IMG/VR virus record: IMGVR_UViG_2675903352_000008
Origin: a virus
Taxonomy: Duplodnaviria > Heunggongvirae > Uroviricota > Caudoviricetes
Length of the DNA: 6,420 bases
Reading direction: 5' to 3' (one strand)
This document shows positions 412 through 6,311 of the stretch, piece after piece (positions within the stretch are counted from its first letter, which is position 1; every line of letters begins with the position of its first letter). The notes beneath the pieces are model-generated. The model saw only the letters and a list, made by a program, of their open reading frames with translations, ran no database searches and was not told the DNA's origin. The translations under genes were made by a program, and so were the position numbers.

Positions 412-1097
412 ATAGCCAGTATTTACAGTTTGTGCGTGAGCAGCTCATTATCGCCACCGCTGATTTGAGTGGGGCAACAAAAGGTCAGCTTGAAGCCTGG
501 CAGGAGAATGCCATGTTCGATACAGGGCGTTACAGGCGTAAAAAAATCCGGTACCGGGATGAGGTGACTGGAAAAATGATAACGCGGGATAATCCACCAA
601 TCCCGGGAAAACAATCACTGGCGAAGGGGACGTCAATTCCTCTGGTCAGTCCGGTTGAGTTTTCGACATCATCGTGGCGGCGGGCTGTTCTGTCTCTTGA
701 AGAACATCATAAAGCCTGGTTGTTGTGGTGTTACAGCGGGAATATTTGTTGGGAATATCAGATCGCGATAACACAGTGGGCGTGGAATGAATTTAATACT
801 CAATCCGGTACCAGAAAAATTGCAGGGAAAACGCAGGAACGCCTGAAAAAATTAATCTGGCTGGCGGCGCAGGCAGTAAAAGCAGAACTTTTTGGTGGGG
901 AAGGTTATGAATACCAGGAGCTGGCATTACTGGCGGGAGTGACAACTAAAAACTGGTCCAAAACATTTACTCGTCACTGGGTTGCAATGAAACACATTTT
1001 TTACCGACTGGATAGTGAGGCTTTATTGTTTGTAATGAGAACACGTTCAAAACAAAAGGTGGCATTTTCAAAGCAAAGTGTTGCAAAAGTAGATTGA
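408..1097 (+). CDS. Putative late-gene antiterminator (Q-like), family unassigned
   Basis: 230-aa ORF starting at ATG 408 (GGAG at 399-402, 5-nt spacing), overlapping the rusA stop. Assigned by synteny: immediately after rusA and immediately before a strong promoter, a terminator and the lysis genes. Trp-rich with only 2 Cys, so no lambda-Q-type Cys4 zinc finger. The track start at 402 is an in-frame GTG with no better RBS. Confidence 0.55.
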   Translation: MNSQYLQFVREQLIIATADLSGATKGQLEAWQENAMFDTGRYRRKKIRYRDEVTGKMITRDNPPIPGKQSLAKGTSIPLVSPVEFSTSSWRRAVLSLEEHHKAWLLWCYSGNICWEYQIAITQWAWNEFNTQSGTRKIAGKTQERLKKLIWLAAQAVKAELFGGEGYEYQELALLAGVTTKNWSKTFTRHWVAMKHIFYRLDSEALLFVMRTRSKQKVAFSKQSVAKVD

Positions 1098-1109
1098 AAG
1101 GCATATATT
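1081..1109 (+). promoter_or_regulatory. Putative late promoter (pR'-like): TTGCAA-N17-TATATT
   Basis: -35 TTGCAA at 1081-1086, 17-bp spacer, -10 TATATT at 1104-1109; predicted start near 1116. Overlaps the last codons of the Q-like gene. A -10-like TGATATTTT at 1121-1129 lies in the initial transcribed region, where a sigma-dependent pause element would be expected. Confidence 0.5.
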
Positions 1110-1130
1110 TCATGCAAATCTGATATTTTG

Positions 1131-1184
1131 CCGATTTTGCCGATTTTGCCGATTTTGCCGATTTTGCCGATTTTGCCGATTTTG
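1131..1184 (+). repeat. Tandem direct repeat, 6 perfect copies of CCGATTTTG (9 bp), preceded by a degenerate copy TGATATTTTG at 1121-1130
   Basis: Read directly: six perfect head-to-tail units at 1131-1139, 1140-1148, 1149-1157, 1158-1166, 1167-1175 and 1176-1184. No spacers, so not CRISPR. Confidence 0.95.
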
Positions 1185-1207
1185 TACGTGATGGCAAAAG
1201 CAAACAA

Positions 1208-1232
1208 AACCCGCCCACAAGCGGGTTTTTTT
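1208..1232 (+). terminator. Rho-independent terminator (tR'-like) ending the short late leader
   Basis: Stem AACCCGC (1208-1214) / GCGGGTT (1221-1227), loop CCACAA, followed by a run of 7 T (1226-1232). Confidence 0.8.
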
Positions 1233-1314
1233 GTGCCACTTATCTCGGATAGATATGGTGAATGCGCTGGTGGAGGAAGTAAGGGTGATTTTTAATCAGG
1301 TGATTTTTGAATGC

Positions 1315-1352: not shown

Positions 1353-1428
1353 GGCCCTTTAGCTCAGTGGTGAGAGCGAGCGACTCATAATCGCCAGGTC
1401 GCTGGTTCAAATCCAGCAAGGGCCACCA
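1353..1428 (+). tRNA. tRNA with anticodon CAU, ileX/ileZ-like (tRNA-Ile2 lysidine type, or Met)
   Basis: 76-nt cloverleaf: acceptor GGCCCTT/AAGGGCC, D-loop with GG, anticodon loop CTCATAA, T-loop TTCAAAT, encoded CCA. Strong similarity to E. coli ileX as recalled. Confidence 0.85.
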
Positions 1429-1429
1429 A

Positions 1430-1506
1430 CCGCCACTAGCTCATCAGGAAAGAGCGTCAACCCTTTAAGTTGAGTGTGCGAGGTTCGAGTCCCCGGTGGC
1501 GGTCCA
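1430..1506 (+). tRNA. tRNA-like gene with atypical anticodon loop CCTTTAA (formal anticodon UUU, C at position 33)
   Basis: Perfect 7-bp acceptor stem CCGCCAC/GTGGCGG, D-arm GCTC/GAGC with GG in loop, anticodon stem TCAAC/GTTGA, T-arm CGAGG-TTCGAGT-CCCCG, discriminator T, encoded CCA. Only the anticodon loop is non-canonical. Confidence 0.6.
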
Positions 1507-1508
1507 GT

Positions 1509-1584
<76 letters not shown>

Positions 1585-1587
1585 TAT

Positions 1588-1662
<75 letters not shown>

Positions 1663-1769
1663 GTATTTATCTGCATATTTCCTTTTGAGTCCCGTTTTGT
1701 TAGAGGTATTGGGCTGTTGACGGGGCTGATATCCACTCTCCACCTTTCAGGGAGATAGGATTTAAGGAG

Positions 1770-1807
1770 CCAACCGGTTAGAGTCTGCTTTGTTCCTAAC
1801 CAGTTGG
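1770..1807 (+). other. Inverted repeat / hairpin between the tRNA array and the 3' end of the convergent moron
   Basis: CCAACCGGTTAG (1770-1781) pairs with CTAACCAGTTGG (1796-1807), 11 of 12 bp, 14-nt loop, then T-rich TTATGTTATTTGAG. Could terminate tRNA-array transcripts before they run antisense into the moron. Confidence 0.3.
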
Positions 1808-1825
1808 TTATGTTATTTGAGATGG

Positions 1826-2389
1826 TTAGTTTTTATTCGCCGTCCATTTACCACAAATTGGTCTGGAGAAGATTGCCAGAATGGCAATAAAGGATATTTC
1901 AATTGAAACAGACCAGCATATATGTCCAATCAGTTCGCTCCAGAATTCATAGCCGTTTAGATTCCATAGCCACCCTCTTTCATGGCCGGGAAGATACGCG
2001 GGAAATCTGAAGCCCAGTGCGGGTATTAAAATACCATGCATGACTAATGTAATAAGAATTCCATATACAGCCCCATACCACATGCGGACTCGTGGAATAA
2101 AAACAGACAGGTATATGTATACAAAGGCAAAAATGAAACTAAAAAGCCAATGATAGAGCATAACAGCTCCGGGAATTGTTACTCCCTGGTAAATGTAATC
2201 CAGCGAGTGTGAATTTATTCCCAGAAAACCCAACCAGGCGTCGATATTCATTGCTGGTGGAGAAATTTCTCCGGCCATTCTTGGGGGCATGTTAGCTTCA
2301 GTTCCTGATTTCACCAGAGAGCTGATCGCGCCACCGACCAGTGTTGCCCAAAGTATGATTTTTAGATTTACACTATTCCATTTACACAT
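1826..2389 (-). CDS. Inner-membrane protein moron, about 4 TM helices, possibly DUF1440/YagU-like
   Basis: 187-aa ORF from ATG 2389..2387 with a strong SD (AGAGG, 6-nt spacing) to TAA at 1826-1828. Four hydrophobic segments. Motifs (VKSGTEANMPPR, SELIGHICWSVSIE) resemble my recollection of YagU/DUF1440, but this is unverified. Transcribed opposite to the late operon. Confidence 0.7.
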   Translation of the reverse strand: MCKWNSVNLKIILWATLVGGAISSLVKSGTEANMPPRMAGEISPPAMNIDAWLGFLGINSHSLDYIYQGVTIPGAVMLYHWLFSFIFAFVYIYLSVFIPRVRMWYGAVYGILITLVMHGILIPALGFRFPAYLPGHERGWLWNLNGYEFWSELIGHICWSVSIEISFIAILAIFSRPICGKWTANKN

Positions 2390-2672
2390 AAACAACCTCT
2401 TGTTTGTTGGGTTGGGGTTATCATACATGACTGCTTGTTGCGATTTTGTATTGTAATGTTTCTGTTTATTGTCTTTTGTGTTGTTTGTCTCTTTAGTGTT
2501 CAGTGTGTGACTATGTACACTCTGTATAGTGGGGGCTCCCGTTGGTGCAGAGAATAACGAAATCTGAAAATAACCGTTTTCAGTTGTGGCGCTCGCAACA
2601 AAAGCGCATGCTGACTGTGCGAAGATAATCTCGCTGTGACGAGTAATCTCGAACGTCATTGTTTTCATTTAT

Positions 2673-2699
2673 GCCAGCTACCCAAAGCTGGCTTTTTTT
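2673..2699 (+). terminator. Rho-independent terminator, plus orientation
   Basis: Stem GCCAGCT (2673-2679) / AGCTGGC (2686-2692), loop ACCCAA, then 7 T (2693-2699). Confidence 0.7.
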
Positions 2700-2702
2700 G
2701 AG

Positions 2703-2725
2703 GTCTGCTCCGGCAGGCTTTTTTT
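2703..2725 (+). terminator. Second tandem rho-independent terminator, plus orientation
   Basis: Stem GTCTGC (2703-2708) / GCAGGC (2713-2718) with one G-U pair, loop TCCG, then 7 T (2719-2725). Confidence 0.55.
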
Positions 2726-2743
2726 ATTCCGGCATATATAACT

Positions 2744-2920
2744 ATGGAGTATTGCGACAACCTGATAAAAGTCTGCATATCGCGATCCAACGGTAGAAGC
2801 GATAAACGGGCTGAGCGATATGTTTCCAGAGGAGAAGAGGTTGAGCGATACGAAGAAACAGCTAAGTATATTAAGAGAATGTTAATGTGCTTCATTGCTG
2901 ATCAGAAGCTATCGGGATAA
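2744..2920 (+). CDS. Hypothetical small protein (58 aa), not in the ORF track
   Basis: My own translation, ATG 2744 to TAA 2918-2920: MEYCDNLIKVCISRSNGRSDKRAERYVSRGEEVERYEETAKYIKRMLMCFIADQKLSG. Charged and hydrophilic. No clear SD upstream, so weakly supported. Confidence 0.2.
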   Translation: MEYCDNLIKVCISRSNGRSDKRAERYVSRGEEVERYEETAKYIKRMLMCFIADQKLSG

Positions 2921-2940
2921 TCATCAGTTTTTTGTATTGA

Positions 2941-2963
2941 GGCTCGCTACGGCGGGCCTTTTT
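2941..2963 (+). terminator. Terminator-like hairpin, plus orientation
   Basis: Stem GGCTCGC (2941-2947) / GCGGGCC (2952-2958) with one G-U pair, loop TACG, then TTTTT (2959-2963). Confidence 0.45.
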
Positions 2964-3043
2964 CACATCCGCGTCACGCCCGGCGCACATCACATCAGAT
3001 AACGCTATACAAAAGGCATCTTCGGGTGCCTTTGATGGGGGGG

Positions 3044-3065
3044 CGGGCCGCTGGTGGCTTTTTTT
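3044..3065 (+). terminator. G/C-rich element followed by a T7 run immediately upstream of the holin RBS (weak terminator-like)
   Basis: GC-rich GGGGGGGCGGGCCGCTGGTGGC followed by TTTTTTT (3059-3065). Only a short stem can be drawn, so assignment is tentative. Confidence 0.3.
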
Positions 3066-3104
3066 GTTTCCATTACACAGCACCCGCATCAGCGAGGTGG
3101 GGTT

Positions 3105-3320
3105 ATGAAATCCATGGATAAGTTAACAACGGGTGTCGCCTATGGCACCTCAGCAGGTAGTGCCGGGTACTGGTTTTTACAGTTGCTCGATAAAGTCACG
3201 CCCTCACAGTGGGCGGCAATAGGTGTGCTGGGTAGTCTGATATTTGGCTTGCTGACGTATCTGACAAACCTTTATTTCAAGATTAAAGAAGATAAGCGTA
3301 AGGCTGCGAGAGGTGAATAA
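3105..3320 (+). CDS. S: Phage-21-type pinholin/antiholin (S21-like), 71 aa, dual-start motif MKSM
   Basis: SD GAGGTGG upstream of ATG 3105; second in-frame ATG at 3114 gives the Met4 (68-aa) form. Sequence [26 protein letters not shown]...[16 protein letters not shown] closely matches S21 as recalled. The track start at 3054 lacks an RBS. Stop TAA overlaps the R start (TAATG). Confidence 0.9.
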
Positions 3321-3817
3321 TGTCGCCATCATTACGCAAGGCTGTTGCTGCTGCTATTGGTGGTGGGGCTGTTGCCATAGCGTCTGTGCTCATCACTGGT
3401 CCGAGTGGTGACGATGGTCTGGAAGGTGTCAGCTACATACCATACAAAGATATCGTTGGCGTATGGACTGTATGTCACGGACACACCGGAAAAGACATCA
3501 TTCCCGGTAAAACGTATACCGAAGCAGAATGCAAAGCCCTCCTGAATAAAGACCTTGCCACGGTCGCCAGACAAATTAACCCGTACATCAAAGTCGATAT
3601 ACCGGAAACAACGCGCGGCGCTCTTTACTCGTTCGTTTACAACGTGGGTGCTGGTAATTTCAGAACATCGACGCTTCTTCGCAAAATAAACCAGGGCGAT
3701 ATCAAAGGCGCATGTGATCAGCTACGGCGCTGGACATACGCTGGCGGTAAGCAATGGAAAGGACTGATGACTCGCCGTGAGATTGAGCGTGAAGTCTGTT
3801 TATGGGGGCAACAATGA
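3320..3817 (+). CDS. R: SAR (signal-anchor-release) endolysin, T4-lysozyme-type muramidase (R21-like)
   Basis: 165 aa. N-terminal Gly/Ala-rich weakly hydrophobic segment [18 protein letters not shown] typical of a SAR domain, followed by an E-(8)-D-(5)-T catalytic arrangement ([18 protein letters not shown]). Matches R21 as recalled. Start overlaps the S stop. Confidence 0.9.
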
Positions 3818-4281
3818 GCAGAGTTACCGCGATTATCTCCACACTGGTTATCTGCATCATCGTCTGCCTGTCGTTGGCGGTCAATCATTACCGTGATAAT
3901 GCCATCGCCTACAAAGAACAGCGTGATAAAAAAGTCAGTGAGCTGAAGCAGGCGATCGCCACCATCGCTGACATGCAGCAGCGTCAGCGTGATGTTGCTG
4001 CGCTAGATGCAAAGTACTTGAGAGAATTAGCCAATGCGAAAGCTGAAAATGAAACTCTGCGCGCTGATGTTGCCGCTGGTCGTAAGCGCCTGCGGGTCAA
4101 TGCCAGTTGCTCCGCAGCCGTGCGTGAGGCCACCGGCCCCACCCGCGTGGATAATGCAACCAGCCCCCGACTGGCAGACACCGCTGAGCGGGATTATTTC
4201 ACCCTCAGAGAACGGCTGATGACAATGCAAAAGCAACTGGAAGGGGCACAGGAATATATCCGTACCCAGTGTATACCGTGA
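3814..4281 (+). CDS. Rz: Rz i-spanin (inner-membrane spanin subunit)
   Basis: ATG 3814 overlaps the R stop (ATGA) with a G-rich SD upstream. N-terminal TM segment [18 protein letters not shown], then charged coiled-coil-like periplasmic region. The track start at 3802 is an alternative in-frame ATG. Confidence 0.85.
4034..4219 (+). CDS. Rz1: Rz1 o-spanin (outer-membrane lipoprotein), fully nested in Rz in the +1 frame
   Basis: 61 aa: signal peptide with lipobox LVVSAC, proline-rich mature domain ([16 protein letters not shown]), nested inside Rz; the hallmark Rz/Rz1 arrangement. Confidence 0.75.
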
Positions 4282-4746
4282 TGTTTTGTTATAAAGGTGT
4301 TGATGGTTGTGTTAGGGGGGATTTAACAAAAAGCCAGTTCCGGACTTTATAGTGTGCTCAGATCATGGCCAAAAACGATTTCTGTGATAAATATTTTGAA
4401 TATTATTTACAGGTAAATGACGTGGGTCGCATGAATGAAAATATTACAATAGAGTATTAAGTATATGTTCATATTGTATGGGCTGAGAAGGCAAAACACG
4501 GTAATTCCTTATGTTGCTATGATACTTGATTGGCAGAATAGTTATTTGGTCTTGAGTATATAGTCAGCGTTTTTTGTTCAGTAATAGTTCTTTCAGTAAA
4601 AAACAATAAATAGCGTGATTATTTCTGTTTGTTATTTATATTTTTGTTTGTTGTTTTATTGTCTTTCTGTGGAGGGGGGAGTATTGTTCCCTTATTAAGG
4701 GCAGGTAAATTTAGAATGGTAATCTGTAGATAATTGGAGGTCACTT

Positions 4747-5061
4747 ATGCTACATGATCACCTGGCTGAATGTCTGGAGAAAAAAGGACTGTACCGGAGA
4801 GCGGCTGAACGATGGGCAAAAGTGATGGTACAGCTAAGTGATGATCAGAAAAGAAAAATCGCGGCACAGAAACGAGCAGAGTGTTTGCGTAAGGCGCGCC
4901 GGACTTCGGTTGCACCGGTGAATCTGACAGAAATAAAGCAAGCGGTCAACAGACTACATTCTGAGTTGGGAATGGGATTTGAAGAGCGGCGGATATTCCG
5001 ACGATATAAAGGGACAGGAGAACAGAATACGTCCGGAAACGCGCGGTCAAAAAAATGCTAA
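4747..5061 (+). CDS. PerC/Pch-family small transcriptional regulator (prophage moron)
   Basis: 104 aa. SD GGAGG (4736-4740) 6 nt before the ATG. N-terminal motif LEKKGLYRRAAERWAKVM resembles the PerC-family signature as recalled; basic C-terminus. Preceded by about 460 bp of AT-rich DNA. Confidence 0.55.
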   Translation: MLHDHLAECLEKKGLYRRAAERWAKVMVQLSDDQKRKIAAQKRAECLRKARRTSVAPVNLTEIKQAVNRLHSELGMGFEERRIFRRYKGTGEQNTSGNARSKKC

Positions 5062-5125: not shown

Positions 5126-5564
5126 TGTCATATATACGTCGTTTAAGTAAACCTGTCTGAACAGGTGCTCTGGTCGTGTTTGTTTTTGTTGGGTACAAAT
5201 TGAGAATGTTTTTCATTAATTAGTCTTCTTCAGCAGACTTCAATAATCCACGCTGAAAAAATTCCTGAACCTTTCTGACCAAAAGCGATGTTAATTTGTT
5301 CAATCATCTGGTTTGGAAATCGGATGTTGAGGGCTGTTGTTCTGCGGGTTCTGTTCTTTGATGACATAATGTTGCCCCATATTCAGTGTTGCTGGTTTGT
5401 ATTTTCTGAAGTTGCTTTTACGTTAATTTGATGTGGATCAATTGATGCAATGCCTGCGTCATAATTGATCATTTCTTGTGGTTAGATTGCGTACACACAC
5501 GTTCTGATGAGTCATCATGCAGATGATAACTATTCTCATTTTTTGTGGGTCCTTTCCGGCGATC

Positions 5565-5765: not shown

Positions 5766-6311
5766 ATGGAAGTCAACAAAAAGCAGCTGGCTGACATTTT
5801 CGGTGCGAGTATCCGTACCATTCAGAACTGGCAGGAACAGGGAATGCCCGTTCTGCGAGGCGGTGGCAAGGGTAATGAGGTGCTTTATGACTCTGCCGCC
5901 GTCATAAAATGGTATGCCGAAAGGGATGCTGAAATTGAGAACGAAAAGCTGCGCCGGGAGGTTGAAGAACTGCGGCAGGCCAGCGAGACAGATCTCCTGC
6001 CAGGGACTATTGAGTACGAACGCCATCGACTTACGCGTGCGCAGGCCGATGCACAGGAGCTGAAAAATGCCAGAGACTCCGCTGAAGTGGTGGAAACCGC
6101 ATTCTGTACTTTCGTGCTGTCGCGGATCGCAGGTGAAATTGCCAGTATTCTCGACGGGATCCCCCTGTCGGTGCAGCGGCGTTTTCCGGAACTGGAAAAC
6201 CGACATGTTGATTTCCTGAAACGGGATATCATCAAAGCCATGAACAAAGCAGCCGCGCTGGATGAACTGATACCGGGGTTGCTGAGTGAATATATCGAAC
6301 AGTCAGGTTAA
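5766..6311 (+). CDS. nu1: Terminase small subunit Nu1 (lambda-type)
   Basis: 181 aa, nearly identical to lambda gpNu1 as recalled (MEVNKKQLADIFGASIRTIQNWQEQGMPVLRGGGKGNEVLYDSAAVIKWYAERD...), including the N-terminal winged-HTH region. Confidence 0.95.
   Translation: MEVNKKQLADIFGASIRTIQNWQEQGMPVLRGGGKGNEVLYDSAAVIKWYAERDAEIENEKLRREVEELRQASETDLLPGTIEYERHRLTRAQADAQELKNARDSAEVVETAFCTFVLSRIAGEIASILDGIPLSVQRRFPELENRHVDFLKRDIIKAMNKAAALDELIPGLLSEYIEQSG

Follow-up and report, generated by a model that had tools for sequence, protein, structure and literature searches.

Phage lambda carries bor, a small envelope-protein gene that lies in the late region beside the lysis genes, opposite to late transcription; it is expressed in the lysogen and alters the phenotype of the host (serum resistance). 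In phages encoding Shiga toxin (Stx), stx is located between Q and tRNA genes on one side and the holin gene on the other, where it is co-oriented with the late transcript and dependent on it. A further point of reference is yagU (b0287) of Escherichia coli K-12, a gene of the DUF1440 family that is acid-induced and controlled by CpxR and OmpR (PMC2270276, PMC1626474, PMC7657598, PMC5217608). In this study we describe a DUF1440 gene at positions 1826-2389, minus strand, of a 6,420-nt stretch of viral DNA (IMG/VR record IMGVR_UViG_2675903352_000008, Caudoviricetes), which we refer to in its full length as the window. The window, 6.4 kb long, covers the part of a lambdoid prophage devoted to late regulation and lysis, and it is 98.5-99.6% identical to a prophage of E. 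coli 377323_2f. We found the gene to be a horizontally acquired moron in the late-operon leader of a lambdoid prophage of Escherichia albertii and E. coli. Judged from its sequence, it is a real and intact accessory gene that is selectively maintained.

The gene resembles bor in being an opposite-strand gene for an envelope protein next to a lysis cassette; here it is also absent from close relatives and deviates in GC content. However, Bor is an outer-membrane lipoprotein whereas the DUF1440 protein is a polytopic inner-membrane protein, and there is no sequence or family relation between the two. Moreover, the DUF1440 gene lies upstream of the holin gene and bor downstream of Rz, and expression in the lysogen has been demonstrated for bor but is inferred for the DUF1440 gene. 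What it has in common with stx is the slot. In phage Stx2a_F349 the gene order is Q, ileZ-argN-argO, stx2AB and holin, with an ileZ region that is ~90% identical to the first tRNA gene of the window; hence the DUF1440 gene occupies the position in which Stx phages carry stx, just as a first-pass annotation of the window had proposed. Its orientation differs from that of stx-type, Q-dependent cargo, since the gene is found on the minus strand whereas Q, the tRNA genes, holin, lysozyme, Rz and Nu1 are all on the plus strand. Being antisense to the late transcript, it would follow a regulatory logic opposite to that of stx, and the products of the two are unrelated.

The gene, its product and its insertion

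An ATG at 2387-2389, inside a longer minus-strand open reading frame (ORF), opens a 564-nt coding sequence (CDS) for a product of 187 residues. It is preceded, at a spacing of 6 nt, by the Shine-Dalgarno motif AAGAGG (2396-2401, minus strand, read from the sequence), which the first-pass annotation had noted as a strong ribosome-binding site, and this arrangement is invariant in the window and in two E. coli chromosomes (L001 and L002). In both chromosomes the Prokaryotic Genome Annotation Pipeline (PGAP) makes the 187-residue call, and in E. coli 377323_2f, 99.4% identical to the window, the identical 564-nt CDS has been named 'YagU family protein' in RefSeq (WP_024246368.1). A search of the NCBIfam hidden Markov models with the 187-residue protein gave no match, so the RefSeq name was not derived from that library. 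The Pfam check of the tentative DUF1440 assignment was clear: the protein matches PF07274 with E=8e-38 and 130 bits, compared to a gathering score of 34.7 bits, and the alignment covers profile positions 2-135 of 135. A match of this strength makes a chance ORF impossible. In the PHROGs collection we found only a weak match to one family of 'unknown function'.

The expectation of a protein with roughly four transmembrane (TM) helices was borne out as well. Four hydrophobic 19-residue windows are present at residues 7-25, 81-99, 107-125 and 157-175, and an AlphaFold2 model (mean predicted local distance difference test 81, predicted TM-score 0.77) contains four long helices at 6-33, 74-97, 103-124 and 146-173. 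Searching with this model, we found no similar fold among solved structures or viral predicted structures. A cysteine at position 2 was considered as a sign of a lipoprotein or signal peptide, a reading that we rejected since there is no lipobox and TM1 starts from about residue 7. The protein keeps all 33 invariant columns of an alignment that includes K-12 YagU (A1) and all 54 invariant columns of a second alignment (A2). Between the window and L002 the CDS differs by 7 synonymous and 2 non-synonymous substitutions (dS 0.057, dN 0.0046, omega about 0.08), and both replacements between the prophage copies fall in the last four residues. On this comparison the gene appears to be under purifying selection.

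The gene is located on the strand opposite to its neighbours, between the tRNA array (1353-1662, plus strand) and the lysis cassette (3105-4281, plus strand), as had been described. Many E. coli prophages have the same module of Q and Ile-Lys-Thr-Gly tRNA genes at 97-99% identity. In two such relatives (L004 and L005), with Q and tRNA modules 97-99% identical to those of the window, tRNA-Gly and holin are separated by 280-475 bp. Homology of these empty-site relatives to the window ends at 1663/1664 and restarts at 3094, the pattern expected of the moron-type insertion that the first-pass annotation had suspected. The variable segment that replaces their short tRNA-to-holin spacer comprises 1665-3093, and the DUF1440 module proper about 1665-2488. 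The GC content of the DUF1440 CDS is 42.2% (39.9% at third codon positions), versus 46-54% in RusA, Q, holin, lysozyme, Rz, PerC and Nu1. We found no direct repeats and no target-site duplication in the flanks of the variable segment. In a search for the donor, no nucleotide homology extended past the CDS to any sampled chromosomal or plasmid copy, and the best identity within the CDS was ~72%; the donor therefore is unsampled.

The longer minus-strand ORF spans 1826-2668, starts with an ATG at 2666-2668 and would encode 280 residues. It might be possible that this is the true product, with a soluble N-terminal domain preceding the DUF1440 core: the ORF is uninterrupted in the window and 280-residue versions have been reported by some automated gene callers (P0001, P0122, P0134). 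Nevertheless we consider this almost certainly wrong and agree with the first-pass annotation that the longer model is an artefactual extension through low-complexity sequence. Homologues are only 181-188 residues long and align from the MCKW start, the Pfam domain begins at residue 22 of the 187-residue form, and it is the internal ATG that has the strong ribosome-binding site and is called by PGAP. In L002, where the CDS is intact, the sequence upstream of it is interrupted in this frame by a stop codon and carries indels, one of them of 10 nt, whose lengths are not multiples of three. When the window and L002 are aligned, the ~100 nt directly upstream (2390-2488, minus strand), a conserved A/C-rich 5' leader at the end of which the megablast match to L002 stops, are nearly invariant; beyond them the alignment degenerates with indels and sharp divergence. 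The start codon of the long ORF lies within 2551-2731, a piece of phage backbone that is ~90% identical to prophages without the DUF1440 gene. The extension itself is rich in T, N, S and K, of low complexity and without a Pfam match. On the evidence of homologues, L002, backbone and composition, the 93-residue extension (2390-2668, minus strand) is spurious and the region non-coding.

Relation to K-12 YagU and distribution of carriers

The prophage protein and K-12 YagU belong to one Pfam family, with scores far in excess of its gathering threshold in both cases, have the same four-helix inner-membrane architecture and share invariant residues: K27, E31, P35-P36-R37, H80, H118, E148, E152, H156 and E164 are invariant across both subfamilies. 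However, the two proteins are only 30% identical, with 21% gaps in the alignment. YagU has a ~24-residue insert in the first periplasmic loop that the prophage protein is lacking, whereas the prophage protein has a longer third loop and a total length of 187 residues compared to 204 in YagU. The genomic contexts differ too, yagU being a fixed chromosomal gene next to paoABC (paoABC-ykgJ locus) and the prophage gene being phage cargo. In identity, loop architecture and context the prophage protein does not correspond to an orthologue of YagU; the low identity and the missing loop insert make it a member of a short-form subfamily that is otherwise absent from E. coli. Of the DUF1440/YagU-like call made in the first-pass annotation, membership of the family has stood but orthology to K-12 YagU has not. 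The two represent paralogous subfamilies.

Full-length identity to stand-alone short-form proteins of 181-188 residues is 60-81%, and such homologues are found in Enterobacterales, Vibrionaceae, Pasteurellaceae, Neisseriales, Burkholderiales and Rhizobiales. Proteins such as a Cedecea 'DUF1440 domain-containing protein' and those of Photobacterium angustum and Klebsiella michiganensis have the same length, N-terminus and conserved residues. They are stand-alone and often located beside insertion sequence (IS) elements or on plasmid-like DNA; the Photobacterium copy, for example, has a plasmid-like parAB/BrnTA/hok context. The short-form relatives are chromosomal or plasmid-borne, whereas the prophage copy is found inside a lambdoid late operon. 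DUF1440 was found in 75 plasmid records, and a DUF1440 gene has also been described on an integrative and conjugative element (PMC8895235). Among the 28 homologue loci whose neighbourhoods we compared, the recurring neighbours were an IS3-type transposase in 3 and a protein resembling the major facilitator superfamily in 4 (three genomes of Erwinia and a metagenome-assembled one of Propionivibrio). The mgtE/nikR context of the K. michiganensis copy was considered as a functional clue and dropped, as it is not general among the loci.

Some of these neighbourhoods deserve mention in their own right. Three of the closest chromosomal homologues (75-76% identity) have a transposase ORF nearby: in Enterobacter sp. 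(L012) and Cedecea (L039) an IS3-family (rve) ORF precedes the DUF1440 gene by ~340 bp in the same orientation, and in Erwinia amylovora (L033) a related ORF in the opposite orientation lies ~2.3 kb upstream. In Enterobacter and Cedecea the copy also has the same N-terminus and an equally low GC content (about 42%), which suggests an IS-associated mobile unit.

The gene is rare in E. coli. Using blastn at 'distant' sensitivity, which reaches down to about 65-70% identity, we found a copy in only 2 of 5,426 complete E. coli genomes, in both cases in the Q-tRNA-holin slot. The two carrier prophages have Q, the tRNA genes and the DUF1440 gene in common and differ in their lysis and terminase modules. 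About 600 assemblies, from E. coli and E. albertii, contain the exact 187-residue sequence, which is indexed under a name of the form "MULTISPECIES ... [Escherichia]", and sequence diversity among carriers is very low. All ten long contigs that we inspected carry, in this order, Q, the DUF1440 gene (antisense), holin, lysozyme, Rz/Rz1, PerC, DUF3950 and Nu1; five of the inspected chromosomes belong to stx2f-positive E. albertii from humans and wild birds (PMC10673567). Among 50,697 phage records there was no close copy, but only five remote matches of at most 33.5% identity. In one E. albertii chromosome (CP117678; L049, ~6000-7118) an IS with an rve-family transposase is located in the tRNA region, between the DUF1440 gene and Q. 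This prophage is probably defective for late transcription, and its DUF1440 gene is still intact.

Proposed role and competing explanations

The most likely, though still tentative, reading is that the gene encodes an inner-membrane moron protein that is made in the lysogen and aids tolerance of acid or envelope stress. The DUF1440 gene would be transcribed on its own in the lysogen and its product would contribute to tolerance of external acid or envelope stress, a lysogenic conversion benefiting a gut pathogen; upon induction, RNA polymerase would run antisense through the gene and probably silence it. The link to acid and envelope stress is an analogy drawn from distant DUF1440 relatives only. 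In K-12, yagU responds to external pH and ranks with the genes most strongly induced by acid, and when it is deleted survival at pH 2 drops from 70% to 19% (PMC1626474, PMC2270276); it is a direct target of CpxR (PMC7657598) and has an OmpR site (PMC5217608). In Lactococcus lactis the predictors of how fast milk is acidified include a DUF1440 gene (PMC7959382). With 30% identity and the periplasmic insert absent, however, the acid-resistance phenotype of K-12 transfers weakly to the prophage protein.

The protein itself allows some further speculation. Positive charges are found at the N-terminus (two lysines), in loop 2 (RVR) and at the C-terminus (R/K/K), and loop 1 is net acidic, a distribution of charges that suggests an N-in/C-in topology. 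Given this distribution and the helix boundaries of the AlphaFold2 model, several of the invariant polar residues would be located in the periplasm-facing half of the bundle, namely K27 and E31 at the end of TM1, H80 in TM2, H118 in TM3 and E148, E152 and H156 in TM4, while E164 would lie deeper. Together these histidines and glutamates would form a titratable or metal-binding pocket. It might even be possible that the gene works as an 'inverse stx', a lysogenic-conversion factor that handles or senses protons or metals with periplasm-facing His and Glu residues, being on in the lysogen, where it would make E. albertii and E. coli more tolerant of acid or envelope stress as they pass through the gut, and turned off at induction by Q-antiterminated antisense transcription. 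This more specific version we regard as unlikely.

Downstream of the tRNA array, a hairpin with a 13-bp stem (1770-1807) is found between the convergent array and DUF1440 gene, and the 172-nt region containing it folds with -41.7 kcal/mol (z = -3.45). Between the DUF1440 gene and holin there are three plus-strand terminators, two of them in tandem (2673-2699 and 2700-2725) and a third, a terminator-like hairpin followed by a T-run, just upstream of holin (3045-3066). Q-modified polymerase starting from pR' would cross the tRNA genes, run antisense through the DUF1440 gene and pass the terminators to reach the lysis genes. This geometry of terminators, tRNA genes and orientation fits the late-transcription model of the first-pass annotation, and it is from orientation only that we infer expression of the gene in the lysogen and its silencing when late transcription runs antisense to it.

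Several observations weigh against a stress-tolerance gene expressed in the lysogen. Neither a consensus scan nor a position weight matrix detected a sigma-70-like promoter above background on the minus strand of 2380-3100, where the best matrix score was 5.7 versus a median best score of 7.8 in shuffled sequences. The hairpin at 1770-1807 lacks a U-tract on the minus strand, is followed by no more than a weak T-rich tail on the plus strand, and is no canonical terminator. Since neither a recognisable promoter nor a canonical terminator was found, autonomous expression in the lysogen is unproven. The selection estimate is based on 9 substitutions. Across the 28 homologue loci no neighbour is shared between genera, so the context provides no pointer to a pathway. 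Finally, the acid phenotype is that of a 30%-identical paralogue, and the effect is ~3-fold. Any self-contained promoter should be located within 2390-2488. A TACAAT near 2447-2452 was examined as a candidate and rejected: its spacer to AAGACA is 14 nt and it is not conserved, reading TGCGAT in L001 and TACGAT in L002.

The missing expression signals would be explained if the gene were a neutral passenger that entered the variable Q-S interval by illegitimate recombination, owes its intactness only to this being recent, and is neither expressed nor useful. The lack of a target-site duplication or flanking repeats, the very low diversity among carriers and the rarity in E. coli would fit such an origin as well. 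Still we doubt that this is the explanation, given that synonymous changes outnumber non-synonymous ones by 7 to 2, that the leader has been conserved while the adjacent non-coding DNA decayed with indels, that a near-consensus ribosome-binding site has been kept, and that the gene has persisted in two prophages whose lysis and packaging modules differ and in about 600 assemblies. If the product is made, it might alternatively be directed against other phages, as a superinfection exclusion or defence protein that blocks the entry of incoming phage DNA at the inner membrane. Several prophage-encoded inner-membrane proteins do act in this way, and synthesis in the lysogen is plausible for a small polytopic protein of the inner membrane whose prophage gene runs opposite to the late genes. 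Among related prophages the gene has a rare and patchy occurrence, a pattern often seen with defence cargo, and the weak PHROG match indicates that DUF1440-like proteins recur in some phages. Against this, no family of PADLOC-DB, a database that does not cover every exclusion protein, was matched at E <= 0.01. The phage matches are remote and limited to 5 of 50,697 records. The subfamily is overwhelmingly chromosomal or plasmid-borne with 60-81% identity across Proteobacteria, which fits a physiological role better than an arms race. A phage-directed function hence seems quite unlikely to us.

Another explanation leaves the protein a secondary part: convergent transcription, or the insert together with its hairpin, might act in cis and, in the uninduced lysogen, keep down transcription that leaks from pR' or the tRNA promoter into the lysis genes. 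Indeed the gene is convergent with the tRNA array and late operon, the 13-bp hairpin lies between them, and the lysis genes are directly downstream. However, holin is already insulated by the three plus-strand terminators, two of which (2673-2725) are also part of the backbone of prophages without the insert; conservation is seen at the level of the coding sequence and not of the DNA alone; and the opposing transcription would have to start without a detectable promoter. We regard a cis-regulatory role as very unlikely.

Returning to stress tolerance in the lysogen, the significance of the gene would depend on its being expressed and useful. If it is, the prophage supplies E. albertii, and occasionally E. 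coli, with a subfamily that E. coli otherwise lacks, and a stress-tolerance trait would be added to the phage-borne fitness factors of E. albertii, an emerging enteropathogen that is positive for the locus of enterocyte effacement (LEE) and often for stx2f; a PerC-family regulator is carried on the same prophage. The gene would also offer a tractable, stand-alone entry to DUF1440, a widespread and highly conserved family without known mechanism or structure. Should the 'inverse stx' version hold, it would provide the first phenotype and mechanism for a short-form DUF1440 protein and an example of strand orientation serving as a cargo switch. If the gene is silent, it simply adds to the uncharacterised morons of what is the most variable interval in lambdoid phages. 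RefSeq already lists the protein; what is new here is its context, its boundaries, the assignment to a subfamily and the correction of the gene model. As morons go it is a fairly ordinary one, such genes being commonplace in the Q-holin interval, and an unusual mechanism is not evident.

Other features of the prophage window

On the upstream side the window contains RusA (46-411) and the late antiterminator Q (402-1097, Pfam PF06323), both on the plus strand. A pR'-like promoter (TTGCAA-17-TATATT, 1081-1109, plus strand) overlaps the end of Q, and a strong GC-rich hairpin followed by seven T (1206-1233, plus strand) resembles tR'; these roles are assigned by analogy with lambdoid phages. Between the two lies a perfect 9-nt tandem repeat, ATTTTGCCG, present in 6.7 copies (1125-1184, plus strand) and located inside the would-be short leader RNA targeted by Q. 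At this repeat (window 1139-1170) the alignments to L001, L002, L004 and L005 are interrupted, which suggests that its copy number differs between strains. The repeat could change the spacing or structure of the Q-utilisation region.

The tRNA array (1353-1662, identified by ARAGORN, PGAP and Rfam) carries the anticodons CAT, TTT (Lys), TGT (Thr) and TCC (Gly). ARAGORN assigns the first tRNA (1353-1428) to Met because of its CAT anticodon, whereas PGAP calls tRNA-Ile. The PGAP call and the ~90% identity to the ileZ region of Stx2 phages indicate that it is probably a lysidine-modified Ile2. The array of the window would then read Ile2-Lys(TTT)-Thr(TGT)-Gly(TCC), compared to Ile-Arg-Arg in Stx phages. 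A search of Rfam over the whole window gave only the four tRNAs above threshold and nothing in the DUF1440 leader or 3' region.

The late-leader backbone piece at 2551-2731 (plus strand), which is also present upstream of holin in prophages without the DUF1440 gene, is a 180-bp element with a perfect 7-bp inverted repeat, CTGAAAA-N6-TTTTCAG, at about 2563-2582. It is ~90% identical to sequence within the tRNA-holin interval of other lambdoid prophages with different Q and lysis genes (L006 and L007). The lysis cassette consists of a P21-type holin (3105-3320), lysozyme (3320-3817) and Rz (3802-4281) with Rz1 embedded at 4034-4219, all on the plus strand. It is followed by an AT-rich gap without an annotated gene (4282-4746, 33% GC), within which a degenerate 19-nt tandem repeat is found at 4619-4660.

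Just downstream of the lysis cassette, 4747-5061 (plus strand) encodes a transcriptional activator of the PerC family (Pfam PF06069, E=1e-42). PerC/Pch homologues activate LEE. As the prophage resides in LEE-positive E. albertii, PerC may be the more consequential cargo gene. A second small ORF on the opposite strand, DUF3950 (5230-5367, minus strand, 45 residues), is located between perC and nu1, the latter encoding the small terminase subunit (5766-6311, plus strand). DUF3950 is kept in all carrier prophages inspected.

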